Positions 14,627 to 33,231 of a stretch of 64,000 bases of DNA are shown here, in pieces; positions within the stretch are counted from its first letter, which is position 1, and each line of letters begins with the position of its first letter. Position numbers and translations under genes: made by a program. The stretch is from a virus. The stretch is taken from IMG/VR virus record IMGVR_UViG_3300031555_005249; one strand, written 5' to 3'. Below the pieces are notes generated by a model. That model made no database searches. It saw only the letters and a list, made by a program, of their open reading frames with translations, and was not told the origin of the DNA.

Positions 14627-14683
14627 TTTTTCTTTTCCTCTCTTTCTGTCATAGGGAGTAGCCCTCGCTCTCCACTCGACATA

Positions 14684-14716
14684 TATATTATATCACATCT
14701 TGACGAATTTGTCAAG
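14684..14716 (-). promoter_or_regulatory. sigma-70 consensus promoter, TTGACA-17-TATAAT
   Basis: Plus tgtcaa at 14709-14714 and attata at 14686-14691. Overlaps the 3' end of upstream gene 14712..15158. Confidence 0.6.
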
Positions 14717-15158: not shown

Positions 15159-15190
15159 TTGGTTTAGTTCCTTTCTTCCTTACTGCTCTT

Positions 15191-15223
15191 ATATTATACC
15201 ATACTTTGAGCGATTTGTCAAGG
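15191..15223 (-). promoter_or_regulatory. P1 promoter, TTGACA-17-TATAAT
   Basis: Plus tgtcaa at 15216-15221 and attata at 15193-15198. Confidence 0.6.
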
Positions 15224-15315
15224 GGTTTTTGAAAAATTTTTTCAAAAATTTTTGAGTGTCCACTGATTAGCAAGTCCATTTCACTGCTTTTGTTTCTCAC
15301 CCCTTGACTACGATA

Positions 15316-15348
15316 ATATTATACCACAAAGGGCGCAAAAAGTCAAGC
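15316..15348 (-). promoter_or_regulatory. P2 promoter, TTGACT-17-TATAAT, with conserved leader
   Basis: Plus agtcaa at 15341-15346 and attata at 15318-15323. Same conserved block as at 12981-13005. Confidence 0.55.
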
Positions 15349-15408
15349 GGTTTTGGGAATTTTCTTTTCGTCAATTTGCACAAACTTTTGGCGAAAAAAT
15401 GCGTGGAA

Positions 15409-15425
15409 TTGTGCAATTTGCACAA
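15409..15425. promoter_or_regulatory. palindromic operator-like site TTGTGCAAtTTGCACAA
   Basis: Second copy of the 8-1-8 palindrome, with half-site TTTGCACAAA at ~15375-15384. Confidence 0.45.
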
Positions 15426-15459
15426 AAACGGCGCCACACCGATCGGTGGCGCGCCGACC

Positions 15460-15486
15460 AAAAAGAGGGAGATTAATCTCCCTCTA
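15460..15486 (-). terminator. rho-independent terminator overlapping stop of 15473..15682; GC hairpin 15431-15452
   Basis: AAAAAG then hairpin AGAGGGAGAT-TA-ATCTCCCTCT. The TAA stop sits in the loop. Confidence 0.5.
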
Positions 15487-15682
15487 TTATGATTTTATTG
15501 ATAACTTTTGCATAGTCTTCTTGCGCTCTTCGGAATGCTTGTGCCGCAGTATGCAAAGGGCATTCTTCGCAATCAATTTCGCCGCACTGTATATGAATGC
15601 AGGGGTCAATCATTATAGCTTCAAGAGTGTCGTGCTGTTCTGTTGCGGTTATTGTGACTATGATTTTCATATTTACCTCCAA
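15473..15682 (-). CDS. hypothetical small Cys-rich protein
   Basis: ORF-track ORF with TAA stop. Confidence 0.5.
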   Translation of the reverse strand: MEVNMKIIVTITATEQHDTLEAIMIDPCIHIQCGEIDCEECPLHTAAQAFRRAQEDYAKVINKIIIEGD

Positions 15683-15933
15683 ATTAAATTGATAAGATAA
15701 TAAGTATTCATCGCAAATAATGCGACATTAAGTATTACAAGATTTATGCGCCTTGCGCTAAAGCAAAATGCGGTTGCGATTGCCGAGCCGATGAAGAATA
15801 ATACTGTCATATCGGCGCCACACATAACACCTATTGCGCAAGCGGTATAGATTAGTGCGGTGATATCGGTGATATCAAATTCATAGGGGCGGTCAAGGCT
15901 GAAATAGGTTTTTAGTTTACCAATCAAAGTCAT
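15673..15933 (-). CDS. small membrane protein
   Basis: ORF-track ORF, hydrophobic throughout. Confidence 0.5.
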   Translation of the reverse strand: MTLIGKLKTYFSLDRPYEFDITDITALIYTACAIGVMCGADMTVLFFIGSAIATAFCFSARRINLVILNVALFAMNTYYLINLIWR

Positions 15934-16105
15934 CTACCTCTTCTTCCTCATAATCATTAGTATAATAATATTGCGTGGTTTTGAACTCTTTACCACAACC
16001 GCATTTATATTTGCGACTTGCGACAATTTGCTCTCCGTCCTCTTCATATTTTGCCGATAAATATTTAACTTGGGCGGTGCTACCGCAATTTGGACATTTA
16101 ATCAT
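15917..16105 (-). CDS. zinc-ribbon protein (CPNC...CGC)
   Basis: ORF-track ORF with acidic C-terminal tail. Confidence 0.5.
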   Translation of the reverse strand: MIKCPNCGSTAQVKYLSAKYEEDGEQIVASRKYKCGCGKEFKTTQYYYTNDYEEEEVDDFDW

Positions 16106-16305
16106 TTTAATTTAAGCTCCTTTCTAATATTGATAATTCCACGAAATTCTGCGGTATAGATTGCTTCACAGTGAGGGCAACAAACTTTAGCCTCAAAATC
16201 TGCTTCATACCCGTCAAAATTCCATATCTTTGCATCCACATCTCCACAGAACAAGTCATCTCTGGTTATAAGTTTATCGCAATTTGGGCATTTAATCATT
16301 TTCAA
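16102..16305 (-). CDS. zinc-ribbon protein (CPNC...CPHC)
   Basis: ORF-track ORF. Confidence 0.5.
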   Translation of the reverse strand: MKMIKCPNCDKLITRDDLFCGDVDAKIWNFDGYEADFEAKVCCPHCEAIYTAEFRGIINIRKELKLK

Positions 16306-16489
16306 ATTCTCCTTGATATTCTCTTATTGTGCAATATCCACTCCAACGCCATTCAAGGCATTGTTGATTGATATATTCTTGTGCCTGTTCTTGACTATCA
16401 AAGATAGGCGGTTTATTATCTCCTATGAATCCTTTATGCAAGAAGCCGTTTGGACAAGAGCGAGTATGAATATAAATTACATATTGCAT
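16292..16489 (-). CDS. hypothetical protein (MQYVIYIHTRSCPNGF...)
   Basis: Internal ATG of ORF 16292..16825. The upstream part of that ORF overlaps the tRNA and promoter, so it is discounted. Confidence 0.45.
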   Translation of the reverse strand: MQYVIYIHTRSCPNGFLHKGFIGDNKPPIFDSQEQAQEYINQQCLEWRWSGYCTIREYQGEFEND

Positions 16490-16509
16490 AAGTATTACCT
16501 CTCTTTTTT

Positions 16510-16584
16510 TGGTGAAGCGAATGGGAATTGAACCCACAACGCAGTTGAATAGTGTCAACCTCATTACCTTTGTGATACCGCTTC
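16510..16584 (-). tRNA. candidate amber-suppressor tRNA (anticodon loop contains CUA), CCA encoded
   Basis: Minus-strand read GAAGCGGTATCACAAAGGTAATGAGGTTGACACTATTCAACTGCGTTGTGGGTTCAATTCCCATTCGCTTCACCA. Hand fold gives a 7-bp acceptor stem (GAAGCGG/TCGCTTC, one GU) with discriminator A + CCA, a T-arm GTGGG-TTCAATT-CCCAT with canonical TTCAA T-loop, and an anticodon arm GTTGA-CACTAT-TCAAC whose loop centre is CTA. The D-arm is short (3 bp) and the anticodon loop is 6 nt by hand, so it is non-canonical or my fold is imperfect. Sits between genes under a consensus promoter ~7 nt upstream. Confidence 0.55.
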
Positions 16585-16595
16585 TTATTACATTT

Positions 16596-16628
16596 ATATT
16601 ATACCATATAATCTTGCTTTTGTCAAGA
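16596..16628 (-). promoter_or_regulatory. sigma-70 consensus promoter driving the tRNA, TTGACA-17-TATAAT
   Basis: Plus tgtcaa at 16621-16626 and attata at 16598-16603. The predicted TSS falls a few nt upstream of the tRNA 5' end. Confidence 0.6.
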
Positions 16629-16779
16629 GGTTTTCGAAAAATATTTGCAACTATTTTTCTTATCTCCGATACTTTCCTACTCAAAGCTTTCGTGTCCGTT
16701 CTCTTGTTGTACACCAAGTTTCTGATTTCCATTCCTTGCAAGTTAATTTCTCCGCACGAGGTTCCCCCTCTTGACATTA

Positions 16780-16812
16780 TTATTATATCATACAATCGGG
16801 AAAATGTCAAGT
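16780..16812 (-). promoter_or_regulatory. second upstream promoter (P2-type), TTGACA-17-TATAAT
   Basis: Plus tgtcaa at 16805-16810 and attata at 16782-16787. TGCACAA half-sites at ~16819 and ~16860. Confidence 0.5.
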
Positions 16813-17013
16813 GGTAATGTTGCACAAAGTTTCAACAAAAAAATGGCGGGAAGTGTACAAAATGCACAAAACGGAACGCGCCGGCCGGGCTCGTTCCGCT
16901 CGGATTTCAGGCAAAAAAGAAAAAACCCAGAACTCATGAAAAGCTCTGGAAATTTGTTGAGAGGTCTACTTCGTGGAAATTCGGACTTGGCGCGACCGCC
17001 TTCGTCCGTCAGC

Positions 17014-17316
17014 TTAATGGCTGAAGTGTTTCAACACGTCTTGTACATTGTACTCATTTTCATCATCACTCATAATTATAATTTTATTTTCCCATTCAGC
17101 AGGAATGCTTAAAATTTTAAATGTTTCCTTTAAGAATGAAATCATATTCGTACAATCATTTTTTTGATTGTCAGAATGAAAGAGAAGGGCGCCCAACTCT
17201 TCACAATAAAGTGCATGAAGTGGATAGTCTTGCGCCGAGAGGGTTTCCCAATCAAGGGGAGTAAGTGATGATTCAAAAGAAGTGATGACAAGAGCGTGGA
17301 TGAAGTGATACTTCAT
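17014..17316 (-). CDS. hypothetical protein
   Basis: ORF-track ORF with TAA stop. Confidence 0.5.
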   Translation of the reverse strand: MKYHFIHALVITSFESSLTPLDWETLSAQDYPLHALYCEELGALLFHSDNQKNDCTNMISFLKETFKILSIPAEWENKIIIMSDDENEYNVQDVLKHFSH

Positions 17317-17357
17317 ACCGCGTGACCTCCTTGTATCTCTTATTTCTTTTTACATTT

Positions 17358-17390
17358 ATATTATAATATAAAATTTTATAAAAATCAATG
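17358..17390 (-). promoter_or_regulatory. sigma-70-type promoter, TTGATT-17-TATAAT
   Basis: Plus aatcaa at 17383-17388 and attata at 17360-17365. Confidence 0.55.
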
Positions 17391-17398
17391 GGTGTGGA

Positions 17399-17605
17399 TT
17401 ATTCCACACCCAAGAGTTCCTTTATTTTATTGACTACTTGCTCTTGTGCTTGTTTCAGAATGTAATAATCACAATTATCAAGTGTTGCAATATAATCATC
17501 TACCGCTATGCGGATTTCAATTTCATTACTATTATGATTAAGATCATACTCCTTAATGATTTCTTTTTCATTGATTTCTACGCCCGTAGTAATCTCTATA
17601 TACAT
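17399..17605 (-). CDS. hypothetical small protein (MYIEITTGVEINEKE...)
   Basis: Internal ATG of ORF 17399..17725 with an AAAAGGAGAAAACAAT RBS. The stop lies in a hairpin loop. Confidence 0.45.
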   Translation of the reverse strand: MYIEITTGVEINEKEIIKEYDLNHNSNEIEIRIAVDDYIATLDNCDYYILKQAQEQVVNKIKELLGVE

Positions 17606-17648
17606 ATTGTTTTCTCCTTTTGCGAATTTCCAAATTTTTCCAATGCGC

Positions 17649-17906
17649 CTACCAAGCGACTCGGATATGATATCTACCTTCAAAAAGGTTTTTTTCAATC
17701 TCAGCCTTGTAGCCAAATTTTTCAAGATTCGCTCTTATGAGTTCGACCTCATCTTTGGAAACCTCTTTTACTCCACTGAAATAACCTTGTGAAGCCCTTT
17801 TTTTGATGAAGCGCAACATCTCTTTCATTGCCCACGAATGCATGAATTGGTTTTGATTATTTTCTGCCATCTCTCTTGCTTCCTTTGCGGTCATAGGGTT
17901 TTTCAT
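17649..17906 (-). CDS. hypothetical protein; stop is TAG with a 22-codon in-frame extension to TGA
   Basis: ORF-track ORF. Stop codon is TAG (plus cta at 17649-17651), followed in frame by AHWKNLEIRKRRKQYVYRDYYGRRNQ then TGA. Confidence 0.5.
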   Translation of the reverse strand: MKNPMTAKEAREMAENNQNQFMHSWAMKEMLRFIKKRASQGYFSGVKEVSKDEVELIRANLEKFGYKAEIEKNLFEGRYHIRVAW

Positions 17907-17935
17907 AAGTATTTCCTCTCTTTCTTTTAGTATAT

Positions 17936-17968
17936 ATATTATACCATACTTTTATATATTTGTCAAGT
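17936..17968 (-). promoter_or_regulatory. sigma-70 consensus promoter, TTGACA-17-TATAAT
   Basis: Plus tgtcaa at 17961-17966 and attata at 17938-17943. Confidence 0.6.
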
Positions 17969-17980
17969 AGTTTTTGAAAA

Positions 17981-18205
17981 TTATTTGAAAAAAATTTCAA
18001 GCACAATTACATCGTCGCAACAACCCTCAATAGTTATTTCCATACTATCTATCTTGCGGTTAGCATACTCTTTAATATGCTCACATTCTTTAACATACCA
18101 ATCGATTGATTGAGCACCAAGCCATTGTTCTGCTTTGAGTAAGAAGTTGTCATAAATGCGGATTTTATCTATGTTGTAGATAAGCGGAAGTTGTGCAAGT
18201 GTCAT
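17981..18205 (-). CDS. hypothetical small protein
   Basis: ORF-track ORF. Confidence 0.5.
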   Translation of the reverse strand: MTLAQLPLIYNIDKIRIYDNFLLKAEQWLGAQSIDWYVKECEHIKEYANRKIDSMEITIEGCCDDVIVLEIFFK

Positions 18206-18235
18206 AAGTCATTTTCCTCTCTTTCTTTTACACTT

Positions 18236-18268
18236 ATATTATACCACAAATATCGGGAATTGTCAATA
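18236..18268 (-). promoter_or_regulatory. sigma-70 consensus promoter, TTGACA-17-TATAAT
   Basis: Plus tgtcaa at 18261-18266 and attata at 18238-18243. TTTGTGCAAA half-site at ~18296. Confidence 0.6.
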
Positions 18269-18384
18269 GGTAATAATCAACAAAGTTTTGCGCCGATTTT
18301 TGTGCAAAATGCCAGCCCACAGATAAAACGGCTCGGCGCGCCCGATGCCGAGCCGCCAAAAAACAAAAGAGGGCAATCGCCCTC

Positions 18385-18765
18385 TTAGGTTTGATATTTA
18401 GTTATCTCTGTGGAAGAGCTTTGCGCCACCATTAGCGAAATACACCTTTGCATTGTATCGAGTTCAACCACTCTGATGACTTTGCCTTTAGCATACGCAT
18501 ATCCGCACTCCCAAGCTGATCCAAGGTCACCATTGGCGCCTTCGCAAAAATAGAGAATTTCATCACATTCATCTATTGCTTGAACGTCGTGTTGGAATAC
18601 CTTGCGCGCCCATTCGGAGTTAGGTAAAGCTTTAGCATTAGGTATCTCTAATTCGTGGGGAACGTAAACTTTATATCCTAACTGTCGTAAGAGTTTTGCG
18701 TGCTTGTTTATTCTGTCCTTTTGGCTTTCGGTAAACATAGCACTTGCTATATAAAACTTTTTCAT
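18385..18765 (-). CDS. nucleoside 2-deoxyribosyltransferase-like protein
   Basis: N-terminal FYIASAMF plus GSAWECGYAYAKGK resemble the Nuc_deoxyrib_tr family signature. TAA stop. Confidence 0.5.
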   Translation of the reverse strand: MKKFYIASAMFTESQKDRINKHAKLLRQLGYKVYVPHELEIPNAKALPNSEWARKVFQHDVQAIDECDEILYFCEGANGDLGSAWECGYAYAKGKVIRVVELDTMQRCISLMVAQSSSTEITKYQT

Positions 18766-18790
18766 ATCTCACCTCTTGATAGTGGATAGA

Positions 18791-19009
18791 TTATTCATCT
18801 ATCCACTCTTTTACTTTATAGGCTGTAACCTCGACAATATCAGCGGTGAATTTTATCTCTCCCGTAAAGTTATAGATTACGTAAGTATTACCTCTGTTAT
18901 TTGTCGTAAACTCTCTTGCAAACTGAATTGCCATACTAAGATCGTCAAAATCAGCAATATGTTTGCCGTCCGCATAGACGCCATAGTCAAGAATGTCAAA
19001 TTTTACCAT
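18791..19009 (-). CDS. hypothetical small protein
   Basis: ORF-track ORF. The stop lies in a hairpin loop (AGTGGATAGAT-tattc-ATCTATCCACT). Confidence 0.5.
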   Translation of the reverse strand: MVKFDILDYGVYADGKHIADFDDLSMAIQFAREFTTNNRGNTYVIYNFTGEIKFTADIVEVTAYKVKEWIDE

Positions 19010-19041
19010 AATATTAATACCTTCCTTCCTTTACTGTGCCT

Positions 19042-19074
19042 ATATTATATCATATTACTTGCCTCTTGTCAATA
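19042..19074 (-). promoter_or_regulatory. sigma-70 consensus promoter, TTGACA-17-TATAAT
   Basis: Plus tgtcaa at 19067-19072 and attata at 19044-19049. TTTGCACAAA half-site immediately upstream. Confidence 0.6.
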
Positions 19075-19107
19075 GGCATTTTGCACAAAATTTTGCGGCG
19101 GGTCTTG

Positions 19108-19416
19108 TTAACAATATACAAGACCCATATCACGCCAACGGAGAATAGAAATTTGAGAGCAGGCGCGCCCGACCTCAAGCGCTTTTTTCAAGGTACTTTC
19201 GCGATGGCTCTTGTCTATGTAATAAACTCCAGAACTATACCATATACCACAGTTGCCTTCGTATGCCTTAACGGCGTTGATTGCTTCGCGCGGGTCACGG
19301 GTTTCGATACCTTCGGTGGCTACTTGGTAGCCTGTTTTGAACGTGACGCGCTGACCCTTTTTGAGAGTTAAGCCGTCATTATCTTTAAGTTTGAGAATCG
19401 AGCGAATGTTAATCAT
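19108..19416 (-). CDS. hypothetical protein
   Basis: ORF-track ORF. Confidence 0.5.
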   Translation of the reverse strand: MINIRSILKLKDNDGLTLKKGQRVTFKTGYQVATEGIETRDPREAINAVKAYEGNCGIWYSSGVYYIDKSHRESTLKKALEVGRACSQISILRWRDMGLVYC

Positions 19417-19446
19417 AGGTGTTTCCCCTTCCTTTATCTTACGTAC

Positions 19447-19479
19447 TTATTATACCATAAAAGCGGGAATTTGTCAATA
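19447..19479 (-). promoter_or_regulatory. sigma-70 consensus promoter, TTGACA-17-TATAAT, with upstream palindrome 19508-19525
   Basis: Plus tgtcaa at 19472-19477 and attata at 19449-19454. TTTGTGCAAcTTGCACAA sits ~30 bp upstream of the -35. Confidence 0.6.
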
Positions 19480-19593
19480 GGCAAAAGTAACAAAGTTTTG
19501 ATAGTAAATTTGTGCAACTTGCACAACTATGCGTAAAGCGTCACGCCGCGGCCCTTGGCGTGACGGCGAAAAAAAAAGAGGGCGCAAGCGCCC

Positions 19594-19794
19594 TCATATG
19601 AAGTCGGCAAATTGGTCTTCCACCCAAGCCATTATAAGAGGATTAAAGGTTTGTATCTCAACCTCTACGCATGAGGGATGGACTTGGAGAAGAATTGCCT
19701 CTCCTGCGTTATTAGCGGCGAGGAATGAGCAGACTTTTTGCACCGCCATACCGCTTTCAAAAGTTTTATTAAGCATAAAATTCTTATACTGCAT
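19594..19794 (-). CDS. hypothetical small protein (MQYKNFMLNK...)
   Basis: Internal ATG of ORF 19594..19995 with an AGGAGA RBS. The TGA stop lies inside terminator hairpin AGAGGGCGC-aa-GCGCCCTC, which is preceded by A9. Confidence 0.4.
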   Translation of the reverse strand: MQYKNFMLNKTFESGMAVQKVCSFLAANNAGEAILLQVHPSCVEVEIQTFNPLIMAWVEDQFADFI

Positions 19795-19822
19795 ATATAT
19801 CTCCTTTCTTATGGGGATTGCC

Positions 19823-20110
19823 TTAGCAATCCCCCGTATAGCAACCCATATAGGGGTCAAAGCCGTTTTCATCAGGCTCTTCTTCCTCATAGTCATACCA
19901 GTCGTCATTATAATAGAGGGTCTCAGAGCCGTGATGGTAAATGATGCGCGCCATATCTGTCGCCTCTGCTTCAGTAAGATAGCCATTAGCAACAAGCTCT
20001 ATAAGTCTGCCTATTGCAAGAGAATGAGTATCTTCAAGTCCAAATTCCGTACAAGCAAGATTGAAGCAAGTCTGCAAGTCGAGTTTTGTGTAATCCATAA
20101 TGCACCTCAT
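19823..20110 (-). CDS. hypothetical acidic protein
   Basis: ORF-track ORF. The stop lies in a hairpin loop (GGGGATTGC-ctta-GCAATCCCC). Confidence 0.5.
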   Translation of the reverse strand: MRCIMDYTKLDLQTCFNLACTEFGLEDTHSLAIGRLIELVANGYLTEAEATDMARIIYHHGSETLYYNDDWYDYEEEEPDENGFDPYMGCYTGDC

Positions 20111-20148
20111 AGTATTTATTTGAGAGTCTATTCCCTCTCTTCTTGCCT

Positions 20149-20181
20149 ATATTATATCATATATTCTTGCATTTGTCAATG
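20149..20181 (-). promoter_or_regulatory. sigma-70 consensus promoter, TTGACA-17-TATAAT
   Basis: Plus tgtcaa at 20174-20179 and attata at 20151-20156. Confidence 0.6.
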
Positions 20182-20384
20182 AATAAAATGTAAACAATAT
20201 ATGAATTATGGGACGGGATCCAATCATAGTTTATTCAATCAATTGAAATAAAAAATTTACAAATTGTTCACAAATTGCTTTAACGGTGCGCGCCGACCGT
20301 GCCCGCACCGAGCGATATAAAAAGGCGCGCCAAAGGTCACCCTAAGGCGCGTTATAGTGTTGATATGAGATGCTAAGGGCGCGC

Positions 20385-20678
20385 TCAGGCGCCCTCATCA
20401 TCAAGCTGACTCTCTATAAATGGTATGATGATATTGAATATTTCAACTTCTTTATTGGTTAAGCCTATAATATCGCAATATGCTATTGGCTCTGCTATAT
20501 CTTTATATACCGTGCGTACTGAGGGGCTTAAATGGTATGGGTCAATATAAGGGTCGCTATCACTATCACCCCACATTCTGTCACCTTTGACATCGTATAT
20601 TGCCAATACATCGCCGAAGTAGCGGGCAAGATATTCTGCCCATTGTGTAAACTCATTTTGTATGCTTATTCTTTTCAT
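20385..20678 (-). CDS. hypothetical protein
   Basis: ORF-track ORF. Confidence 0.5.
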   Translation of the reverse strand: MKRISIQNEFTQWAEYLARYFGDVLAIYDVKGDRMWGDSDSDPYIDPYHLSPSVRTVYKDIAEPIAYCDIIGLTNKEVEIFNIIIPFIESQLDDEGA

Positions 20679-20682
20679 TATA

Positions 20683-20898
20683 TTATTCCCCCATTATCTC
20701 CGCTATTGTGTTATCATATATTCTTTTTGCTTTAGTAACGCCATATTGAAACGATATAATACCCTTACGATAGTCATCTAATATATGCCCTATGGCGATA
20801 GTTGTAGGGTGTTCAAGTCCTAACTCTTTACACGCTTTATTAAAGTATCTTCTTATGCTCATAATATTCTCCCTTCTTGAGAGGTGGATTATCTCCAC
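20683..20898 (-). CDS. hypothetical small protein
   Basis: ORF-track ORF. Confidence 0.5.
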   Translation of the reverse strand: MEIIHLSRRENIMSIRRYFNKACKELGLEHPTTIAIGHILDDYRKGIISFQYGVTKAKRIYDNTIAEIMGE

Positions 20899-21233
20899 CT
20901 CTCACCTCTCTCTATATCAAAGTAATATATAATTTCATCAGCGTCAATGAATTTATTTAAGTCAAGACCGCTATTGTAAAACAAGTCATTTAATTCATCA
21001 AGATTATTATAGTCATAAGGGTCAAACTCATAAAGTTCATCTTCATTATTGCAAAATGGGCAAGGGTCATTGTATTCCATAGCATACTGAGGAAGAGTCA
21101 CTTTATGACACTTGCTACAATAAAGTAAATCTGTTAAACGGGCAGGGCGAGTAACTATTTTGTTATTAAGATAAAACGTCGCAAGATATTTGTTATTGTA
21201 TTCATTGTGCTTTGTGTTAATAGTAATTTTCAT
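20889..21233 (-). CDS. zinc-ribbon-containing hypothetical protein (CSKC...CPFC)
   Basis: ORF-track ORF. The stop lies in a hairpin loop (GAGAGGTGGA-ttatc-TCCACCTCTC). Confidence 0.5.
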   Translation of the reverse strand: MKITINTKHNEYNNKYLATFYLNNKIVTRPARLTDLLYCSKCHKVTLPQYAMEYNDPCPFCNNEDELYEFDPYDYNNLDELNDLFYNSGLDLNKFIDADEIIYYFDIERGERWR

Positions 21234-21275
21234 TATTATATACCTCTCTTTTCTTTATCTTGACGGGGCTATTAT

Positions 21276-21440
21276 ATAGCCCCGTATAATTTCATAGGGT
21301 TACTTATATTGATTTTCTCTTGAGTGTTTTCTAACTGTTGTATTAAAGCTTTTTCCTCTAACTCTTGTAAAGCAAGTTCAAACTCATACTCTCGACGGTT
21401 ATCAATGTGCTTGTCGACCACTATTTTATTTTTCATTATC
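21276..21440 (-). CDS. small hypothetical protein (MKNKIVVDKHIDNRREYEFELALQELEEK...)
   Basis: Own translation with RBS AAAGGGGGTG. The TAA stop lies inside the palindrome GGGGCTAT-TAT-ATAGCCCC. Confidence 0.35.
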
Positions 21441-21540
21441 TTCACCCCCTTTGTCTATAATGGTAATAGCAATTTTTGCAACAAGTGCAATTAAACCTAT
21501 TACTAACCAAGTGCCAATAAATTCACCTAACATTTTTTTA
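21427..21540 (-). CDS. small TM peptide (MLGEFIGTWLVIGLIALVAKIAITIIDKGGEDNEK)
   Basis: Own translation with RBS GAGAGGTAAAAAAATG. Stop overlaps the next start. Confidence 0.3.
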
Positions 21541-21833
21541 CCTCTCTGTTTTGATTTTTTGTTTGCGCTCTCTCTCTTGGAGCATACTCATTGTATCACT
21601 TCTTTTTGAACTCCAAGTTTCGAAATTATGAACTTTTTGTAAATCCGACGGGATTTTTCAAATTTTTTTTGTTAACAACTACACAACAATCTCGACATCT
21701 TTTGTTCATAATTTATTCATAACTTTTTTAGTTATTTTCGGGAAAAAAATTATTCACAATTTGTTCACAATTCCGCTCACGACATCTCCCTCCTAGAATA
21801 TTTCTTTTATTTCAAAAAACGAACTTCTAACAA

Positions 21834-21866
21834 CAAAAGAGGGATTTTAACAAATCCCTCTTTGCT
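21834..21866 (-). terminator. rho-independent terminator after lipase gene
   Basis: Hairpin AAGAGGGATT-tgttaaa-ATCCCTCTT followed on minus by TTGTTGTT. Confidence 0.45.
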
Positions 21867-21898
21867 TCTCATATTCAATTGAAAATTACGCACACGTA

Positions 21899-22558
21899 TT
21901 ATAGTTCCTTAAAACGCTCGTTTTCTATTTCTCCTAGACTCTTTCGAATCTCTTCAGGATAATGATGTTTTACGCATTTAAAAATATTCTTTTTACCCAT
22001 TGGATATAATTCGCCAACATGGCGGAAAAAGAAGCATATAGGCGGCAAATGTGTAACTATATCACTTCCATTTCTAAACATGGTGAAATGTGCCCAGCGC
22101 TCTCTTAATTCTTTCTTAACGCGCCAGCCGCCATAGATTCTAGGTCCATCAAATCCAATACCGGTTAACCCCTCTGCGCGCAAGTCTTCTCTATGAAACC
22201 ACACAGCTTCATGACATAATGCGGCAAGAGCTGCGCCATGACTATAACCAACTACTACAATACGTTTCCACCTATAATCGCCGCTAAATCCTTTCTCGGT
22301 TGCGCGCCTAATAACAATATCTTCTATTGTTTTCCAGCACTTTAAGAAGCCTCCATGTACCCTATATTTTATCTTCATATCTTTATAGGGGCGGCGCCAG
22401 TAGGCGAAGTTAGCGCACCAATCTAGCTTACCGCGACTTGGCTAGAAAAAGATGTAAAGTGTCTTATCGCTCTCCAAAAATGCATAATTTACTTTGCCCT
22501 CTGCCTCTTGGTACTCAATCCAATTATTGCACCAATTAAATAACTATACTAAATTCAT
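21899..22558 (-). CDS. class-3 (Lipase_3 / alpha-beta hydrolase) lipase-like protein, TAG-recoded (2 TAG)
   Basis: ORF-track piece 21899..22378 has the GxSxG nucleophile elbow (VVVGYSHGAALAALC). Own upstream extension in frame gives MNLV[TAG]LFNWCNNWIEYQEAEGKVNYAFLESDKTLYIFF[TAG]PSRGKLDWCANFAYWRRPYKDMKIKYRVHGGF..., matching the Lipase_3 N-terminal region (..FRG(T)...W..N...VH.GF). Upstream in-frame TAA at ~22580. Confidence 0.6.
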
Positions 22559-22717
22559 GGCGCGCCCACCCTTAGCCGCTTAAGGTAACTGTCTAAGGAA
22601 GATATAACCTAGACCGGCGCTCTCTTAAAATAATAATCATCTCTTTTCTCCTTTCATATGATGATACTATTATTATAACAGATTTTTTTATAAAGTCAAG
22701 TACTTATTTCATTAACC

Positions 22718-22750
22718 TCTTGACATAGTAAAAATTTTTTGGTATAATTT
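22718..22750 (+). promoter_or_regulatory. plus-strand sigma-70 consensus promoter at start of morphogenesis block, TTGACA-17-TATAAT
   Basis: ttgaca at 22720-22725, tataat at 22743-22748, spacer 17. Confidence 0.6.
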
Positions 22751-22778
22751 ATTTAAAGATAGATGAAAGGAGTTTTGA

Positions 22779-23951
22779 ATGGATACATTACAAACTTTAG
22801 ACGACCTTTTGTCTGATGAGGATTTAGATATTGAAGACTCTTCTGAACAAGAGGAAGAAAATATAGAAGAGAAAATTATCACTGAAGATATTGCGCAAAC
22901 TATAAAATTAGATTATAAGTTAGCTACCTGCGAAGAGCGCTCGGCGTTGGTTAATAAGATTATAGCCCAAACCCCTGCCGCCTCTTTAACAAATCGTTAT
23001 TTAGAAATTTTAGGCGATTATATTATGGGAGGTATCACAAAAGAAGAACGTAAATCGCACCTATACCTTACTGACAATAGAATGATTACTGTTGCAAGGC
23101 GCGAAACGTCTTTTGAAGGTTTGGCAGAAAAATTTGAAAATGGAGAAGATGGTATTTATAATTTAATGACAAATGATAAAAATATTATCTTTGCACCAAA
23201 AAATACAATCACTGAAGAAGATATAGAAAATGTTCCTGGTCTTAAGCAATTGCGCGAGGCTATTATTCAAATTGAAGAGGAGGGGAAACGTGCTATAGGA
23301 AAGCGCAAATACCTTCTCAAAAAGCAACTCATAGAAATGCGTAAAGACCAATATATCTTAAAGAATTCATATTAGGCCCCCATGGTTTGCACTCCTTGTG
23401 CAAAAGGAGCAAATAAAATTGATTTAAGTGAAAAAAAATATGTAGATGAAAATGGAGATCCACAAAGCACAGGTTTAATTTCTTTTTTTAAACCAGAGCA
23501 TATTCAAGCAATTTTAAATAATTATAATGCTTTAAAAATAGAGACTAAAGGTAAATATTCTAGTGACTTTTTTTATTTGATGGAAGATTTTGATAAATTA
23601 TTACATAAGGCATTAGATAATTATCCTATGTATTTTGATATTGTAAAAATGAAAGTAAATGGAAAAACAAATATTGAAATTCAAAAAATGTTAAAAGAAA
23701 AACATAATACAAGTTTTACTGTGTAGTACATTTCCAGTCTATGGTGTAAAAAAATTCCTAAAATTATAGCTGAGAAAGAACAGCATGACTTCTTAATCTG
23801 GTATTATCGTAATGAACAAAAAGGCCCATGGAAGCGTTGCTCTTGTTGTAAAGAATTTAAACCAGCTAATTCGCGCTTTTTCTCTAAGAATCGCACAAGT
23901 AAAGATGGATTTTATAGCATTTGCAAAATGTGCCGCAATAAGAAAAAATAA
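22779..23951 (+). CDS. hypothetical protein with C-terminal zinc ribbon (CSCC...CKMC), TAG-recoded (2 TAG)
   Basis: ORF-track ORFs 22779..23375 and 23382..23726 share a frame and are separated only by TAG. The frame continues past a second TAG (23724) to a TAA at 23949. RBS GAAAGGAG. Confidence 0.55.
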
Positions 23952-24032
23952 GGACAAAAATAATTATATATATACGCTTAATTTTATAAATCAATAAAGG
24001 CAAGCAAAATATAATTAAGAAAGGAGATTCTA

Positions 24033-25244
24033 ATGGCTAAATATCATTGTAATAAATGCAATAAAGAATTAGAAGAAATTAATTTTTATAAGTATAGAGA
24101 TGGTAGTTATGTAGAACTTTGTAAAAAATGTTTGACAATGCATGTTGATGTTTTTGATCCTAGCACTTTTACATGGCTATTAGAAAAATTAGACGTTCCT
24201 TATATCCCTCAAGAGTGGAACGCAGTAATTGAAAATAAAATGGCGAAAAAGCCAGATAAGCCTATTTCACATTCTGCTGTATTTGGATCTTATTTATCGA
24301 AGACTAAATTAAAACAGTGGAAGGATTATTATTGGGCAGATAATGAGCGTATTCAAGAATTATATTATCAACAAAGCGCGCAGGCTTCTGCGGAAAAGGC
24401 TGAACTTGATGCGATGTATCAGGAGTAGTTTGAAGCGGGTCAGATTTCAGAAGCATAGTATAAAACTCTTACCTCCCCAAAGGCGCGCAATGATTCTATG
24501 ATGGCGGCGCTTAGCGCAGGTGGCCCTTATTTAGGAGAAAATAACTCTTTTAATGAGAATGATTTTATTGATGACTCTGCATTACCCGATTTATCTGCGC
24601 AAATGACACAAGAAGAAAAGATTACCTATGCAATGAAATGGGGTAAGTTATATAAGCCTAGTGAATGGATAGAGCTTGAAACAGATTATCAAAAGATGAA
24701 AAAATCATTTGATATTCAAGATGCAGACTCTGAAAATACATTAATTCTTTTATGTAAAACAAATTTAAAAGCTAACCAAGCTATTGACTGTGGCGATATC
24801 GAAGGCTTTTAGAAATTATCAAAAGTATCTGAATCATTGCGTAAATCAGCTAAGTTTACAGCAGCGCAAAATAAAGAACAAAAAGATGATTATGTAGATT
24901 CTATTGGATAGCTTATCGCTATTTGCGAAAAAGATGGTTTTATTCCAAGGTTTGCGACAGATATACCTCAAGATAAAGTTGATATGACTTTACGAGATAT
25001 GAATGAATATGTGCGTAAGCTAGTTACCCAAGATTTAGGCTTTGGACAACAAATTGAAGACTCTTTAAAGAAAATTATGATTCAAAATGAAATGAATCGT
25101 GAGGCGGAAGCGCGCCAGGCAGAAGAGGGTGATGACTTTGACCCTTATGCGCCAACGGAACTCGAGGATGAAGATATTGTTGCGCATTATGACAATTTAC
25201 TAGAGATGAGACAAAAAGATCGAGATTTACTCGAGAAAGAGTGA
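24033..25244 (+). CDS. hypothetical protein with N-terminal zinc ribbon (CNKC...CKKC), TAG-recoded (about 4 TAG)
   Basis: ORFs 24033..24428, 24498..24812 and 24984..25244 share a frame and are separated only by TAG codons. TGA stop at 25242-25244. Position upstream of the large terminase suggests a possible small terminase or packaging accessory, but this is unverified. Confidence 0.5.
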
Positions 25245-25248
25245 AGCT

Positions 25249-26997
25249 ATGGCAGTTCAAGATCTAATTAATCTCGCCCTTTGTGGAGACCAGAAAAAAA
25301 TAGGGTTGTCAAAAGAACGCATTATGAAATAGATACCAATAGTGCGGTAGTATGTTGCCTATTGGCGCGAATATCCTGATATGTTTGTAGAATTCTTATG
25401 CGGTCCAGAGAACAAAGAAAATTTTTAGTTATTTTTTTATTAGCGTTTATTTTTACGCGCAGTTATGCGTCATAGATATGCCTATGCAACGTTTCCTCGT
25501 GCGTATTCAAAAAGTTTTCTCTCAGTACTTGTATTAATGCTAAGATGTATACTATATCCTGGTAGCCATTTATTCGTTACCACAGGGGGTAAAGAGCAAG
25601 CGGCAGGTATTGCTAAAGAAAAATCAGACGAGCTTTGCAAATTAATACCTGGATTAAAGAATGAGCTCGATATGACAAGAGGTAAGACTAAAACAAGTAA
25701 AGATAATATTGAATTAATATTTAAAAATGGTTCAAAATTAGATATTATGGCGGCGCGCCAGTCGTCTCGTGGTAAACGTGCTACCGGTGGTCTAATGGAA
25801 GAGTGTATTCTTATAGACTAGACCTTGCTGAACGAAGTTATTATTCCTACAATGAACGTAGATCGAAGATTATCAGACGGTTCCCGCGTAGAGGAGGAAA
25901 CTGTTAACAAGAGTCAGATTTATGTGACGACCGCAGGATGGAAGAATAGCTTTGCTTATGAAAAACTTATAGAGTTGCTAATTCGTCAAATTATTTATCC
26001 TGATGAAGCAGTTGTTATGGGTGGAACCTGGCGTATTCCAGTTATGGAAAAATTACTAAAAAAGAGCTTTATTGAAGAACTAAAATTAGACGGAACTTAC
26101 AATGATGCTTCCTTTAGTCGAGAATATGAATCAGAATGGAGTGGAGATGCTGAAAATGCCTTCTTCTCTGCTGAAAAATTTGATAAGCATCGTCAATTAT
26201 TACAACCAGAATACGAGTATTCCGGACGTACGTCAAAGAGTGGATATTACGTACTTGGCGTCGATGTGGGTCGTCTTAAGTGTACAACTGAAGTTTGTAT
26301 TTTCAAAGTCACTCCTTAGGCGCAAGGCGCAGCTTTAAAATCTTTAGTCAATCTCTATTCCTATGAAGCCGAGGACTTTGAAGCACAAGCTATTAAAATT
26401 AAAAAGTTATTTTATAAATACAAGGCTCGTATGATCGCAATTGACGCCAATGGACTTGGAGTTGGTTTAATAGACTTCATGACCAAAGGACAAGAGGATC
26501 CAGAAACAGGTGAATATTTGCCGCCTTTTGGAGTTGATGGAGGCACATCTGATGAGTTTAATGAGCAGTATAAGAAAGTTAAAGGCGCCGGAGTGGAAGA
26601 AAATGCAATGTATTTAATTAAAGCTAATGCGCCTATTAATACAGAAGCTCATACTTACGTACAAACTCAATTGGTTGGAGGTAAAATTAAACTTTTAATT
26701 GATGAAACTTAGGCTAAAACAAAATTAATGGCAACAAAGATGGGACAAGAAATGGATGCGTCCAAGCGCGCCGATTATTTAATGCCATTTACACAAACTA
26801 CAATTTTGCGTGAGTAGCTTTTGAATCTTGTAGAAGATAACGAAGGTACAAATATTATTCTTAAGCAATCATCTCGCGGGATTCCAAAAGATAAGTTTTC
26901 TGCTTTTGAATATGGATTATATTATATTAAGCAAGAAGAAGACCGTAGTCGAAAACGTAAAAAGAGAAATATATCAGAGATGATGTTCTTCTCTTGA
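25249..26997 (+). CDS. terL: terminase large subunit, TAG-recoded (about 7 TAG)
   Basis: Single frame from ATG 25249 through ORF-track pieces 25465..25821, 25825..26319 and 26431..26712 to TGA at 26995. Carries ATPase-like FPRAYSKSF / ILID motifs, YVTTAGW coupling motif, and C-terminal RNaseH-like nuclease Asp motifs (YYVLGVDVGR; IAIDANGLGVG). Confidence 0.7.
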
Positions 26998-27070
26998 TAA
27001 AAATTAGGACAATTTTAAATAAATTATAACTTATAATTTTTATATAACAATAGTAAAGGAGTGAAGAGAT

Positions 27071-27427
27071 ATGAAAGCAAGTCGAGGCGAAATTAAAATT
27101 TGTGATATTTTAACCGAGGCTGGCGTCTCTTTTACAGAAGAGTATTCATTTTCCGATCTTGTTGGTTATACTAAAACCCCTTTAAGATTTGATTTTGCAG
27201 TATTAGACGATGATGGAGAGGTTGATTTTTTAATTGAATATTAGGGTATTCAACATTATGAACCTAAGTCTAAATTTGGCGGAGTGGCTGGATTGCGCCA
27301 ATAGCAATACTACGATATGTTAAAAAGGGAGTATTGTAAAAAACATAATATTCCCTTGGTTTTAATTCCTTATTATGATGAAGGAAGAATAAACTACGAT
27401 TATATCTTTAAGGCCGCTGGCTATTGA
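27071..27427 (+). CDS. small PD-(D/E)XK / DUF559-like endonuclease (homing-endonuclease-like), 3 TAG
   Basis: MKASRGEIKICDILTEAGVSFTEEYSFSDLVGYTKTPLRFDFAVLDDDGEVDFLIEY[TAG]GIQHYEPKS... resembles the D..(D/E)xK core of Vsr/DUF559-type endonucleases. Inserted between terminase and portal genes. TGA stop. Confidence 0.45.
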
Positions 27428-27454
27428 CAAGATTGAAAATTTTGAATATAATAT
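27422..27454 (+). promoter_or_regulatory. plus-strand sigma-70 consensus promoter, TTGACA-17-TATAAT
   Basis: ttgaca at 27424-27429, tataat at 27447-27452. Confidence 0.55.
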
Positions 27455-27469
27455 TTAGAGAAAGAAGAG

Positions 27470-29074
27470 GTGCTTAGTTTGGACGAAAGAATAGAGCAAA
27501 TTCATAAAAAAGGCTTTAACATGAGCACCCCAAGAAGTATCCCAACAGAAGGGAATGTAATTCCTGAATTAGATTATTCACGAATAAAAATAGGAATTAA
27601 GGCGCTTGATGATGCAGTTATAAATCTAGGAGCATATAAAAAACTAAATCCTAATATGACAAAAGAAAGGATTTAGAAGGCAATTGTAACTGGAGATATA
27701 GAATTTATGCGTGAAGCATCTAATTTTTATTTTAAAATAAGTGGTATCTATTCAAGACTATGTAAACACTTAGCTAATTTTTATAGATATGATTGGTTTA
27801 TTACTCCTTATGTTAAAAATGCTACTCCAGAAAAGGTTATTGATGGCTTTAATAAATGGAATGAGTATTTAGATAATTTTGGAGTAAAAGAGAATTTAGG
27901 CGATATAGCTTTGAAAGTATTGCGTAATGGATGCTATTATGGATATATTATAAAAACAGACAATGGCGCTTACCTTTAGGAGCTATTACCAAAGTATTGC
28001 CGCAGCCGCTTTAGTGTCAAAGGGCGCCCGGCGGTTGAATTTAATATGAAATTCTTTAATGACTATTATAGAGATGAAGATTATCGTATTCAAGTGTTGA
28101 AAATGTTCCCTAAGGACTTTCAAAAAGGTTATACTGCTTTTATAAATGGAAAGCTGCCACCTGTTGAGCCGGGGGATACTGCGGGATGGTATCTACTTGA
28201 TCCAGAATGTGCTATTAAGTTTAATATTAATGGCGAAGATTATCCTCCTTTTATTTCAGTTATTCCACATATTATTGATTTGGATGCTGCGCAAGAGTTG
28301 GATAGAAAGAAAATGGCGCAAAAACTTCTAAAAATTATTATTTAGAAAATGCCATTAGACAAAAATGGTGATTTAATATTTGATGTTGAGGAAGCACAAG
28401 AGCTTCACAATAATGCAGTTAAAATGTTGGGCAAGGCTATTGGTATTGATGTATTAACGACTTTTGCAGATGTAGAAGTCGCTGACATGGCTGATAAAAA
28501 TACTGCTACTACTATTGATGAATTAGAAAAGGTTGAAAGAACCGTGTATAATGAGTCAGGTACGGCATAGAATTTATTTAATACTGATGGTAATATTGCT
28601 CTTGAAAAAAGTATTCTTGATGACGAAGCTAATTTATATAATCTTATTCTTTAGTTTCAATCATTTTTGAATTAGCTTATTGAAGATAAGAAAAATAAAA
28701 AATTGTATTATAAAGTTCAAATATTACCAACTACAATTTATAATTATAAAGATATGTCAAAAATTTATAGAGAGCAAAGCGCGCAAGGAGGTTGTTCTAA
28801 GGTTCTTGCAAGTGTTGCACTTGGGCAATCTTATGCTTCAGTAATAGCCACAGCGAAATTTGAAAATGAAATTCTTGATGTATCTAACCTTTTCCAATCG
28901 AAATAGTAGAGGGAAGAGGCAAAAGCAAAAATGAAAACAGATAATAACAAAACTACTAATCCTGCAAATAAACAGGAAGAAGTTGTTGTTGAAAAGAAAA
29001 AAGTCGGGCGCCAAGAGAAGCCTGATGATCAAAAGTCAGAAAAGACAATTAAAAATCGCGAAGCCATGAGCTGA
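27470..29074 (+). CDS. portal protein, TAG-recoded (about 8 TAG incl. tandem TAG-TAG)
   Basis: ORF-track pieces 27470..27676, 27707..27979, 28046..28345, 28349..28570 and 28703..28906 all lie in one frame, separated only by TAG. The frame continues to a TGA at 29072. Size (~530 aa) and position between terminase and prohead protease fit a portal. The start (GTG 27470 versus ATG 27518) is uncertain. Confidence 0.55.
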
Positions 29075-29091
29075 GGAGAGGAGAAACGGAA

Positions 29092-30453
29092 ATGCACAAA
29101 TCAGTTGCTACGATAAACTCTCCTGAGTTTATCAATTTAAAACCACTTGATATTAATCCTTTAATGTCTGCATGTGAAATTAAAGTTTTGTATGTTGGCG
29201 AAAATCGTAATAGGTCATATATAACCAAGGATGTTGCAACCGAAATGGCTAAGACATTACGAGGTGCGCCTATTGTAGGTTATTATAAAGAAGACATTGG
29301 AGACTTTAGAGACCACGGACAAGAAGTTATTATTGATAACGATGGGATTAAATTTAATTGCAAAACTGTTCCTTATGGTTTTGTAGCTCCAGATGCAAAG
29401 GTATGGTTTAAAGAATTTGAAGATACTAATGACTTTGGAGAAACTATTTTGAGAGAATATCTTATGACTACAGGATATTTGTGGACTGGCCAATTTGAGG
29501 AATGTAAATCTGCTGTTGAGGGCGATGGCAAGCCGCACTCGATGGAATTAGATGAAGCAACCGTTAAAGGACATTGGGAAACAAATACCAAAGGCATGGA
29601 TTTCTTTATTATAAATGACGCAATTTTTTCAAAACTTTGCATTTTGGGCGACGATGTTGAACCTTGTTTTGAAGGCTCAAGCATAAAAGCACCAAATGTT
29701 AGTGCGTCTTTTACGAAAGTAGATGATACTTTCAGACAAACATTATTTACTATGATGCAGGATTTAAAGACTGCATTAGGAGGAGGTCAGCAAATGATAG
29801 ACGCTATCGTCGATAATGCTGTAGTTGAAGAGCCTATTGTAGCGCCTGCGGCAGAACCTGCTGCGGAACCTATTATCGAGCCTGAAACTCCAGTAGAACC
29901 TTCTTTTGCTGCATCACAAGAGCCAGCTGTTGATACACCTGCAGTGGTTGAAGAGCCTGCGGCAGAACCTGTCGTAAATCCTGAAGACCCTGCTCCTGTA
30001 GATCCTGAACCGGCGCCCGCGCCTTCAATAGAAGAGCAGTTTACTGCACTTCAGCAGGAACTTGAGGAAGAAAGAACTGCACACTCTGCGCTTGCAGAAC
30101 AGTATGCGCTACTTCAATCTCAGTATAATACCCTTTCAGCTGAGCACCTAGAACTTGTTGAATTTAAAAGACAAAGTGACGATGCAAAGAAAGACGAAAT
30201 GATTGGAAAATTCTATATGCTTAGCGATGAAGATAAGGCAGAGGTCTTATTTAATAAAGCTAATTACACTGTAGAAGAAATTGAAGAAAAACTTTCTGTA
30301 ATTTGTTTCAGAAAAAAGGTCAATTTTGAATTAGAGGATAACTCTAAAAATAATAATAAAGTAGAGCAACCACCTGTGACATTTAATATGTCCAACCCTG
30401 GTGCTTCAATGCCTGCTTGGTTACAAGCAGTTGAAAATGCAAAAAATAAATAA
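29092..30453 (+). CDS. prohead protease (HK97-family) fused to scaffold domain
   Basis: N-terminal region is HK97-type prohead-protease-like. The C-terminal half is Pro/Ala/Glu-rich followed by a coiled coil (EEQFTALQQELEEERTAHSALAEQYALLQSQYNTLSAEHLELVEF). No TAG across 453 codons. RBS GAGGAGAGGAG. Confidence 0.6.
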   Translation: MHKSVATINSPEFINLKPLDINPLMSACEIKVLYVGENRNRSYITKDVATEMAKTLRGAPIVGYYKEDIGDFRDHGQEVIIDNDGIKFNCKTVPYGFVAPDAKVWFKEFEDTNDFGETILREYLMTTGYLWTGQFEECKSAVEGDGKPHSMELDEATVKGHWETNTKGMDFFIINDAIFSKLCILGDDVEPCFEGSSIKAPNVSASFTKVDDTFRQTLFTMMQDLKTALGGGQQMIDAIVDNAVVEEPIVAPAAEPAAEPIIEPETPVEPSFAASQEPAVDTPAVVEEPAAEPVVNPEDPAPVDPEPAPAPSIEEQFTALQQELEEERTAHSALAEQYALLQSQYNTLSAEHLELVEFKRQSDDAKKDEMIGKFYMLSDEDKAEVLFNKANYTVEEIEEKLSVICFRKKVNFELEDNSKNNNKVEQPPVTFNMSNPGASMPAWLQAVENAKNK

Positions 30454-30473
30454 TTTTAAGGAGGACATATAAC

Positions 30474-33229: not shown

Positions 33230-33231
33230 AT

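Follow-up and report, generated by a model that had tools for sequence, protein, structure and literature searches.

A strand-symmetric, lineage-specific excess of the tetranucleotide GCGC in a TAG-recoded phage genome and its close relatives

Word counting over a 64,000-nt stretch of DNA from the virus record IMGVR_UViG_3300031555_005249 of IMG/VR (the whole stretch is referred to below as the window) revealed a strong excess of the palindromic tetranucleotide GCGC. The window stems from an uncultured gut phage; it has a G+C content of 34.9%, somewhat above the ~33% quoted in an initial annotation of the same DNA, and carries 322 GCGC sites, approximately one per 200 bp, where 59 are expected from composition (5.4-fold); when tetranucleotides are ranked by over-representation, GCGC stands far ahead of all others. 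The initial annotation had pointed to longer words, namely GGCGCC, GCGCGC and the octamer GGCGCGCC, and slightly understated their abundance, which exact counting over the whole window set at 37, 35 and 7 copies, respectively. Here, we show that the pattern is a compositional bias and not a set of signals, and that a preference for GCGC acts on the DNA duplex, on either strand, in each of the three codon phases and also outside called open reading frames (ORFs), in a manner specific to the tetranucleotide. As its cause we tentatively put forward a fixation bias acting on DNA toward a palindromic recognition site, which may be linked to methylation and repair in the host.

Base composition predicts 1.8 copies of GGCGCC, 1.8 of GCGCGC and 0.05 of GGCGCGCC in the window, and a first-order Markov simulation yielded 3.6 ± 1.9, 5.2 ± 2.2 and 0.2 ± 0.4. 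The three words are thus 7- to 100-fold in excess of low-order models, far beyond such expectation, and relative to composition alone GGCGCC and GGCGCGCC are enriched 20.5-fold and ~130-fold. The maximal-order Markov expectations (38.3, 32.4 and 6.0), however, nearly equal the observed counts, so that neither the hexamers nor the octamer are irreducible. GCGC itself is expected 119–122 times at first order and 239–244 times at second order, and exceeds the first-order value 2.7-fold (z ~18). The true unit is therefore GCGC, and the longer words, which had been taken for the signal itself, are explained by their sub-words as by-products of GCGC plus a symmetric preference for G or C at its flanks. 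In particular, the excess depends on the 5' flanking base (G, 10.7-fold; C, 5.8-fold; T, 4.8-fold; A, 3.0-fold), the two sides being symmetric and acting independently and multiplicatively; G is preferred 5' and C 3' of the site, and GGCGCG/CGCGCC reaches 14.2-fold.

The sequence context of this excess is one of general depletion. CpG stands at 0.4–0.6 of expectation in most NCGN contexts and comes near or above parity only with G before or C after it (GCGT/ACGC, 0.81; GCGA/TCGC, 1.08; GCGG/CCGC, 2.1; GCGC, 5.4), while other words composed entirely of G and C are depleted, GGCC to 0.49 and CCGG to 0.47. Eight 4-bp palindromes (GGCC, CCGG, GATC, CTAG, CATG, ACGT, GTAC and TCGA) are approximately 2-fold depleted (0.38–0.56), as expected of restriction-site avoidance in phages; GCGC, being enriched, behaves in the opposite way, and the earlier remark that the enrichment runs contrary to the usual depletion of restriction sites is well founded. 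A simpler origin would be a mutation bias of the replication or repair machinery acting on dinucleotides, from GT/AC to GC, in which case GCGC would be a passive compound of two GpC steps. Consistent with this, the window has a GpC odds ratio of 1.50 and a GT/AC ratio of 0.74, many AC/GT-containing tetranucleotides are depleted in the window's clade compared with its non-enriched relatives, and the GpC ratio is 1.2–1.56 at all high-GCGC loci (mostly at least 1.4); a rule by which T after G becomes C would, moreover, turn all four transition neighbours of GCGC into GCGC. We nevertheless consider this origin unlikely, as it leaves the 2.7-fold residual over the first-order expectation, does not account for the strong dependence on the outer base (ACGC, 0.81; TCGC, 1.08; CCGC, 2.08; GCGC, 5.44), and would not leave GGCC, which also contains GpC, depleted.

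The late (structural) genes, in which TAG is read as a sense codon, served for tests of codon context. Shuffling synonymous codons within these genes, with protein sequence and codon usage kept, yielded 75.6 ± 7.3 GCGC against 174 observed and 3.4 ± 1.7 GGCGCC against 22 observed, and the GCGC sites fall in codon phases 0, 1 and 2 in numbers of 69, 71 and 34. The preference is visible in individual codon choices: alanine is encoded by GCG in 46% of cases ahead of a C-starting codon versus 6–14% otherwise, glycine by GGC in 59% ahead of GCN versus 17% otherwise, and arginine by CGC in 30% following a G-ending codon versus ~10% following A- or T-ending codons. The odds ratios for the synonymous codon that completes a GCGC are 4–8, corresponding to a fixation bias of roughly ln(4–8), or ~1.5–2, per site, and the bias operates almost wholly through synonymous choices. 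Outside called ORFs (5.8 kb) GCGC reaches 9.4-fold, making this the most enriched portion of the window. These findings bear directly on the view that amino-acid composition, codon usage or GC-rich patches produce the excess as a side effect, for which one could cite the higher G+C content of the 10–22 kb region (0.36–0.43), where copies of GCGCGC and the octamer are densest, and the moderate use of GCG, CGC and GGC codons. Such an artefact, to which we attach hardly any probability, is refuted by the shuffle, by the excess outside ORFs and by the orthologous genes of a relative (L007) that lack the bias; the depletion of GGCC and CCGG likewise speaks against it.

Along the window, GCGC is present at 2–18 sites in every 2-kb bin, and its ratio of observed to expected counts is 6.2 in the ORFs of the first 10 kb, 4.6 in the GC-richer 10–22.8 kb and 5.1 in the late ORFs. 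The stretch at 18320–25760, to which the initial annotation had assigned its counts, differs from the remaining window in degree only; the counts are in fact window-wide, and only 3 GGCGCC lie in that stretch. GGCGC and GCGCC occur 122 and 100 times, a proportion equal to the G/C skew, and all top 7-mers are equally frequent on both strands, so that analysis of strand and position found the GCGC words symmetric and spread over all 64 kb. No 10–11 bp helical phasing was seen in the distances between GCGC pairs, and no clustering near any landmark was found in the window.

This distribution weighs heavily on the alternative that the words are discrete elements, i.e. Chi-like hotspots, packaging signals, or terminator or structured-RNA stems. 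Some copies do lie in hairpins (13322–13341, 15431–15452, 20376–20395 and the terminator-like 58052–58078), and six of the seven octamers fall within 15.4–25.8 kb. The initial annotation had described the words in coding regions and in intergenic hairpins; the coding sites were confirmed, while the hairpins proved minor, perfect stems of at least 6 bp holding 8 of the 322 GCGC sites (2.5%), the same fraction as for unrelated control tetranucleotides, and an Rfam scan of the window returned a single tRNA only. Each of the six octamer positions reported there lies within 8 nt of a true copy, the copy at 15448 having been overlooked, and the contexts of the octamer are heterogeneous, ranging from a terminator-like hairpin to a position immediately ahead of a start codon, with three copies in coding sequence. 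A Chi-like hotspot was rejected, the word being palindromic and strand-symmetric with no orientation bias, and the Firmicutes Chi motifs GCGCGTG, AGCGG and GAAGCGG have small counts and are not the source of the signal. A packaging (pac/cos) signal was rejected given the absence of a localised cluster and the presence of sites in every bin, and terminator or RNA stems were rejected for the bulk of sites on the control-level stem fraction. Together with the density of one site per 200 bp and the lack of positional conservation described below, these results refute discrete signals for the bulk of the GCGC sites and make the alternative extremely improbable, although individual copies may have roles. 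Among the functions that had been suggested for the words, a modification or recognition target thus stays a candidate, as judged from the sequence, and the Chi-like, packaging and RNA-stem options do not.

The excess is not an assembly artefact, since twelve contigs from JGI, ENA and Logan assemblies match the window ends (1–7338 and 53262–64000, their only matches); identity over these stretches is 100% for eleven of them, and the remaining one (L008) has a single mismatch in 4,238 bases. The phage is present in goat-faeces enrichment samples (JGI 3300018475, 3300018878 and 3300018495). These twelve contigs, which cover the window ends only, provided no single-nucleotide polymorphisms usable for a polymorphism test of selection.

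We next considered relatives of the window, defined as IMG/VR contigs with syntenic structural genes and ordered by capsid identity to it. The ratio of observed to expected GCGC declines along this series, from 5.5 at 85% identity and 4.7 at 76% to 1.8–2.6 at 56% and 1.3 at 52%. In orthologous genes, the odds ratios for alanine, glycine and arginine are 7.5, 4.7 and 4.1 in the window, 6.5, 6.5 and 3.5 and 7.9, 4.6 and 2.3 in the two closest relatives (L001 and L004, respectively), 2.6, 1.6 and 2.2 in L006 (56% capsid identity), and 0.9, 0.3 and 1.3 in L007 (52%). The number of opportunities to complete a GCGC is broadly alike across the compared genomes (3.4–12.7 per 1000 codons, by class); therefore, the proteins have not been visibly reshaped. 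When the GCGC sites of the window were aligned to the 85% relative, 24 of 77 (31%) were kept, close to the 27% expected from a nucleotide identity of 72% (0.72^4 = 0.27). Individual sites thus come and go at the neutral rate, and their density is nonetheless maintained.

A broader set of ~200 related phage loci, fetched via NrdD, ThyX and GyrB, has a median GCGC ratio of ~1 and a 95th percentile of ~4, and in a GyrB tree the high values group in the window's clade, with a further group of lower ones in a second clade. Pooled GCGC stands at 4.79-fold in the clade (319 kb) versus 0.92-fold in the non-enriched relatives (1.32 Mb). Relative to the latter, the clade has gained GCGC (log2 +2.4), CGCG (+1.9) and GGCG/CGCC (+0.8), and has lost ACGT, GTAC and CCGG in addition to the AC/GT-containing words mentioned above. 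Taken together, these comparisons indicate that the GCGC bias is lineage-specific, graded and heritable, and absent from distant relatives with the same genes. A somewhat different flavour was seen in a TAG-recoded contig (L130, CACZGA010000005.1) with GCGC at 7.0-fold and CGCG at 5.5-fold and GGCGCC at only 3.8-fold, and in further related TAG-recoded contigs (L122 and L023/L024) where GCGC and CGCG are both high and GGCGCC is barely enriched, which suggests related but non-identical processes among lineages. The signature of the window's clade (GCGC, 5.1-fold; GGCGCC, 20-fold) is also carried by L125 (JAFRFD010000123.1), a phage contig that is syntenic with the clade (Pol III alpha, NrdD and NrdG) and is labelled 'MAG: Methanobrevibacter sp.' (MAG, metagenome-assembled genome), a binning that is almost certainly an error.

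Dimeric DNA enzymes would be expected to read a symmetric palindrome of 4–6 bp that has preferred flanks. Two routes are known by which a site of this kind can become enriched, namely a repair bias coupled to methylation and selection for the site as such. In the methylation-linked fixation bias that we tentatively favour, the source would be a cytosine methyltransferase of GCGC or RGCGCY type in the infected cell, coupled to a kind of mismatch correction by which methylatable sites are regenerated or newly formed, either by short-patch repair of T:G to C:G or by methyl-biased mismatch repair. Gain of GCGC would then outpace its loss in a genome otherwise drifting toward A+T and away from CpG, and the hexamers and the AscI octamer would be without a function of their own. 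We favour such a mechanism because positions are not conserved, because the bias gradually fades as one moves along the phylogeny and because it is confined to synonymous choices, and the methylatable word, GCGC, is present in the excess that very-short-patch repair would produce.

Several observations weigh against it. No deficit of the deamination product was seen, GCGT/ACGC standing at 1.00 in the clade versus 0.75 in the relatives, and GTGC/GCAC is nearly equal in the two (0.92 in the clade versus 0.96 in the non-enriched relatives; log2 −0.07) and, though not diagnostic, lends the mechanism no positive support. In E. coli, the effect of very-short-patch repair is far below 5-fold. Furthermore, methylation of the phage DNA is itself presumed from the word pattern, and in sequence alone a repair bias and weak selection of equal strength look alike. 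We also screened a composite complete genome of the clade, assembled from the window, its flanks and positions 1–75.6 kb of IMG/VR contig 3300029305_004519, using sequence motifs (PCQxFS-type, [DNS]PP[YFWH] and GCFWH) rather than hidden Markov models on ORFs of 90 aa or longer, TAG being translated as Gln. In these screens, the composite contained no C5, N4 or N6 methyltransferase motif and no Vsr motif (GCFWH). On the strength of these motif screens, a phage-encoded methyltransferase or Vsr was rejected as the cause, so that the host would have to supply the enzyme.

A different explanation is that the density of GCGC has been positively selected. GCGC would then be the site of a phage or host protein that binds or modifies double-stranded DNA, and every additional copy would add to the benefit; one may think of base modification as a protection, of sites at which the phage replisome is primed or loaded, or of a protein that compacts the DNA. 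A dimeric protein would be equally suited to reading such a symmetric palindrome with flank dependence, the early and late regions and the DNA outside called ORFs are all strongly and evenly affected, and GCGC is enriched while the eight other palindromes are avoided. The clade also has its own replisome (Pol III alpha, DnaB, DnaG-type primase, type II topoisomerase, ligase and RecJ) and a sigma-70-like factor, all recognised by eye. This explanation, however, comes without a candidate protein, and the sites have no positional conservation, no 10–11 bp phasing and no clustering near landmarks; in addition, the scatter over at least two clades with gradual fading resembles amelioration of a signature rather than a gained function. 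We therefore regard density selection as possible, albeit less probable than the methylation-linked bias. Its stronger form is rather doubtful, namely that GCGC is a positively selected, densely iterated site, read or modified by a host or phage activity, and that the phage profits from carrying one every 200 bp; the benefit might then be, e.g., self-marking, protective modification or loading sites for the phage's own replisome.

The mapped sites and regions are collected in Table 1.

Table 1. Coordinates of the GCGC-related features in the window (position 1 is the first nucleotide)
Feature	Position	Strand	Description
GCGC excess	1..64000	both	322 sites, 5.4-fold over base composition
Stretch named in the initial annotation	18320..25760		58 GCGC (7.2-fold), 14 GCGCGC, 5 GGCGCGCC, 3 GGCGCC; local GC 36.3%
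GGCGCGCC	15448..15455		Between two called ORFs; overlaps right arm of hairpin GCGCCAC-N8-GTGGCGC (15431-15452)
GGCGCGCC	18335..18342		In GC-rich hairpin followed by T run on - strand, terminator-like by eye (hairpin unscored); ~45 nt downstream of nucleoside 2-deoxyribosyltransferase ORF (18385-18765, -)
GGCGCGCC	19162..19169		Within small ORF 19108-19416 (-)
GGCGCGCC	20324..20331		Between called ORFs; separate hairpin AGGGCGC-N6-GCGCCCT at 20376-20395
GGCGCGCC	22559..22566		Immediately 5' of ATG of class-3 lipase ORF (21899-22558, -)
GGCGCGCC	25752..25759		Within 595-codon late ORF 25210-26997 (+)
GGCGCGCC	50452..50459		Within 1655-codon late ORF 48913-53880 (+)
Late (structural) gene block	22779..64000	+	TAG read as sense codon; basis of codon-context tests
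GCGC hairpin	58052..58078	+	12-bp stem GAAAGGCGCTAA/TTAGCGCCTTTC then T7, terminator-like, after 504-aa ORF

Five of the seven octamers fall in a region (10000–22778; GC 0.36–0.43 against ~0.33) that holds many small ORFs on both strands, the sixth copy being that at 25752. This region includes an ORF at 13907–14626 (-) with weak PHROG matches, among them a DNA polymerase exonuclease subunit family, and the tRNA found by Rfam (13241–13312, -; 44.6 bits), for which ARAGORN was unable to name the anticodon (loop TTTCGTT). The hairpin GGGGCGC-aaat-GCGCCCC at 13322–13341 lies 10 nt upstream of the 5' end of this tRNA on the - strand. A non-palindromic word, CAATAG/CTATTG, is the top hexamer of the window under the maximal-order Markov model, with 112 copies on both strands versus 44.6 ± 7 in dinucleotide-preserving shuffles, and CAAGAG/CTCTTG is elevated too.

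Long ORFs of the window are open only when TAG is read as sense, namely one of 3150 codons with 82 in-frame TAGs (39357–48809, +) and one of 1655 codons with 32 (48913–53880, +). In-frame TAGs are absent from several late ORFs (capsid-region genes) and from many early-region ORFs. The mostly TAG-free early region contains an ORF at 1910–2752 (-) for a GIY-YIG homing endonuclease with NUMOD3, which has six in-frame TAGs; it was called as a 69-aa fragment by one gene caller and whole by another (L008 versus L009). No suppressor tRNA (CTA) was found in the window, even though TAG is read as sense there, and Pfam and PHROG scans of the late ORFs revealed no lysin or wall-binding domain. The closest named phage is phAss-1, with a capsid 46% identical, Enterococcus phages being more distant. 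Across loci, TAG recoding correlates weakly with the GCGC ratio (Spearman 0.38), a relation confounded by phylogeny, and a link between the two was rejected; several recoded phages have no GCGC excess.

By eye, the composite genome carries a full set of genes for replication and nucleotide metabolism; it further encodes a RecD-like helicase, topoisomerase II A and B, an NAD-dependent ligase, ThyX, NrdDG, dUTPase, RNase H, NAPRTase, PncA and a tRNA array, in addition to the Pol III alpha, DnaB, DnaG-type primase, RecJ and sigma-70-like factor noted above. Three of its genes were located on IMG/VR contig 3300029305_004519: the sigma-70-family factor (L214, 2116–3039; by eye from the translation); the NAD-dependent DNA ligase (L134, 4470–7414), which a 324-codon ORF splits between the adenylation part and the C-terminal part and which thereby looks like an essential gene with a mobile insertion; and the NAPRTase gene (L294, 4994–6250). 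The latter has more than 120 protein clusters at 84–90% identity, and the contigs that bear it in the ENA and Logan assemblies reach 145 kb. The clade thus belongs to a very large, essentially undescribed group of gut and rumen phages with genes for NAD salvage (NAPRTase and PncA).

A search for the host by NrdD alignment yielded mainly related phage contigs in MAG bins whose taxonomic labels are mixed (Erysipelotrichaceae, Bacilli, Clostridia and even Methanobrevibacter), and one with the clade's NAPRTase protein yielded phage-sized contigs only, at 84–90% identity. Long contigs with ~70% NrdD identity, possibly bacterial (Oscillospiraceae and Clostridia; origin unchecked), have GCGC at 0.6–1.9-fold. 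The sigma-70 factor, Pol III alpha, DnaB and DnaG-type primase, together with an excess of the Shine-Dalgarno-like GGAGA, point to a bacterial host rather than to the archaeal bin, and on these sequence features the host is probably a member of the Bacillota.

Phages are expected to shed short palindromes under restriction, and the window does so for eight of them, yet gains GCGC five-fold. Such a gain points to a sequence-specific force outside current accounts of phage genome composition, possible forms of it being a methylation-linked repair bias and an advantage that the site confers. Since the bias is graded among relatives that share genes, these phages offer a natural series in which to look for the cause. 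The bias could also help to tie uncultured phages with recoded stop codons to their hosts, provided that the hosts share it. Binning based on k-mers would be distorted by a bias of this kind, and one may conjecture that this misled the binning of the related contig in the Methanobrevibacter bin. In practical terms, HhaI, NarI and AscI sites are far commoner in the window DNA than expected. Our literature searches on over-representation, palindromes and phages turned up no publication in which phages are described as enriched in GCGC or GGCGCC; were the selected-site explanation true, this would be the first 'highly iterated palindrome' (HIP) system described in phages, with repeated origins within a large TAG-recoded group from gut and rumen.

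Four known systems invite comparison. In E. coli, Dcm methylation together with Vsr very-short-patch repair produces an excess of CCWGG and a deficit of CTWGG. The phage pattern is like this system if the target is enriched through correction of T:G to C:G, acting on DNA irrespective of coding; it differs in that the T-containing neighbour is not depleted in the clade, that the phage has neither a Vsr nor a methyltransferase motif, and that the skew in E. coli is of much lesser magnitude. The eight palindromes at 0.38–0.56 of expectation conform to restriction-site avoidance in phages (Rusinov et al. 2018, PMC6286503), while GCGC moves in the opposite direction and by a larger factor. The phage phAss-1 (OQ749652; PMC10607447), of the proposed genus Phassvirus in the 'Caudoviricetes code 15 clade', has a genome of ~136 kb in which TAG is a sense codon. 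It shares with the window the 3150-aa ORF of tape-measure size and a giant structural ORF, the window's ORF sizes matching the phAss-1 tape measure and its giant Ig/beta-propeller protein; it differs in its G+C content of 42–44% and in a GCGC ratio of only 1.55, and the bias therefore does not characterise the group as a whole.

The HIP systems of cyanobacteria come closest. Unlike these, the present case concerns a phage, its irreducible core is the 4-mer GCGC with independent flank preferences instead of a 6- or 8-mer, and no cognate methyltransferase was found in the same genome by the motif screens. The density is also higher, ~5 per kb compared with ~1 per kb for HIP1 (GCGATCGC), and conservation above neutral, reported for HIP1, has no parallel in the phage, whose GCGC sites are retained at the neutral expectation (31% versus 27%). 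As in HIP1 and in the GGCGCC of Calothrix, on the other hand, a short G+C palindrome is many-fold over-represented relative to composition and to low-order Markov models, both in coding DNA of any phase (69/71/34) and outside genes (9.4-fold). The closest analogue is Calothrix PCC 7103, in which the identical hexamer GGCGCC is hyper-abundant and two methyltransferases are able to methylate it (PMC4390886), and a ratchet of methyl-biased repair is the proposed source of this excess as well as of HIP1 (Elhai 2015, PMC4390886). The likeness extends to the lineage-specific and sporadic occurrence of the excess and to its proposed origin as a by-product of methylation-biased repair.

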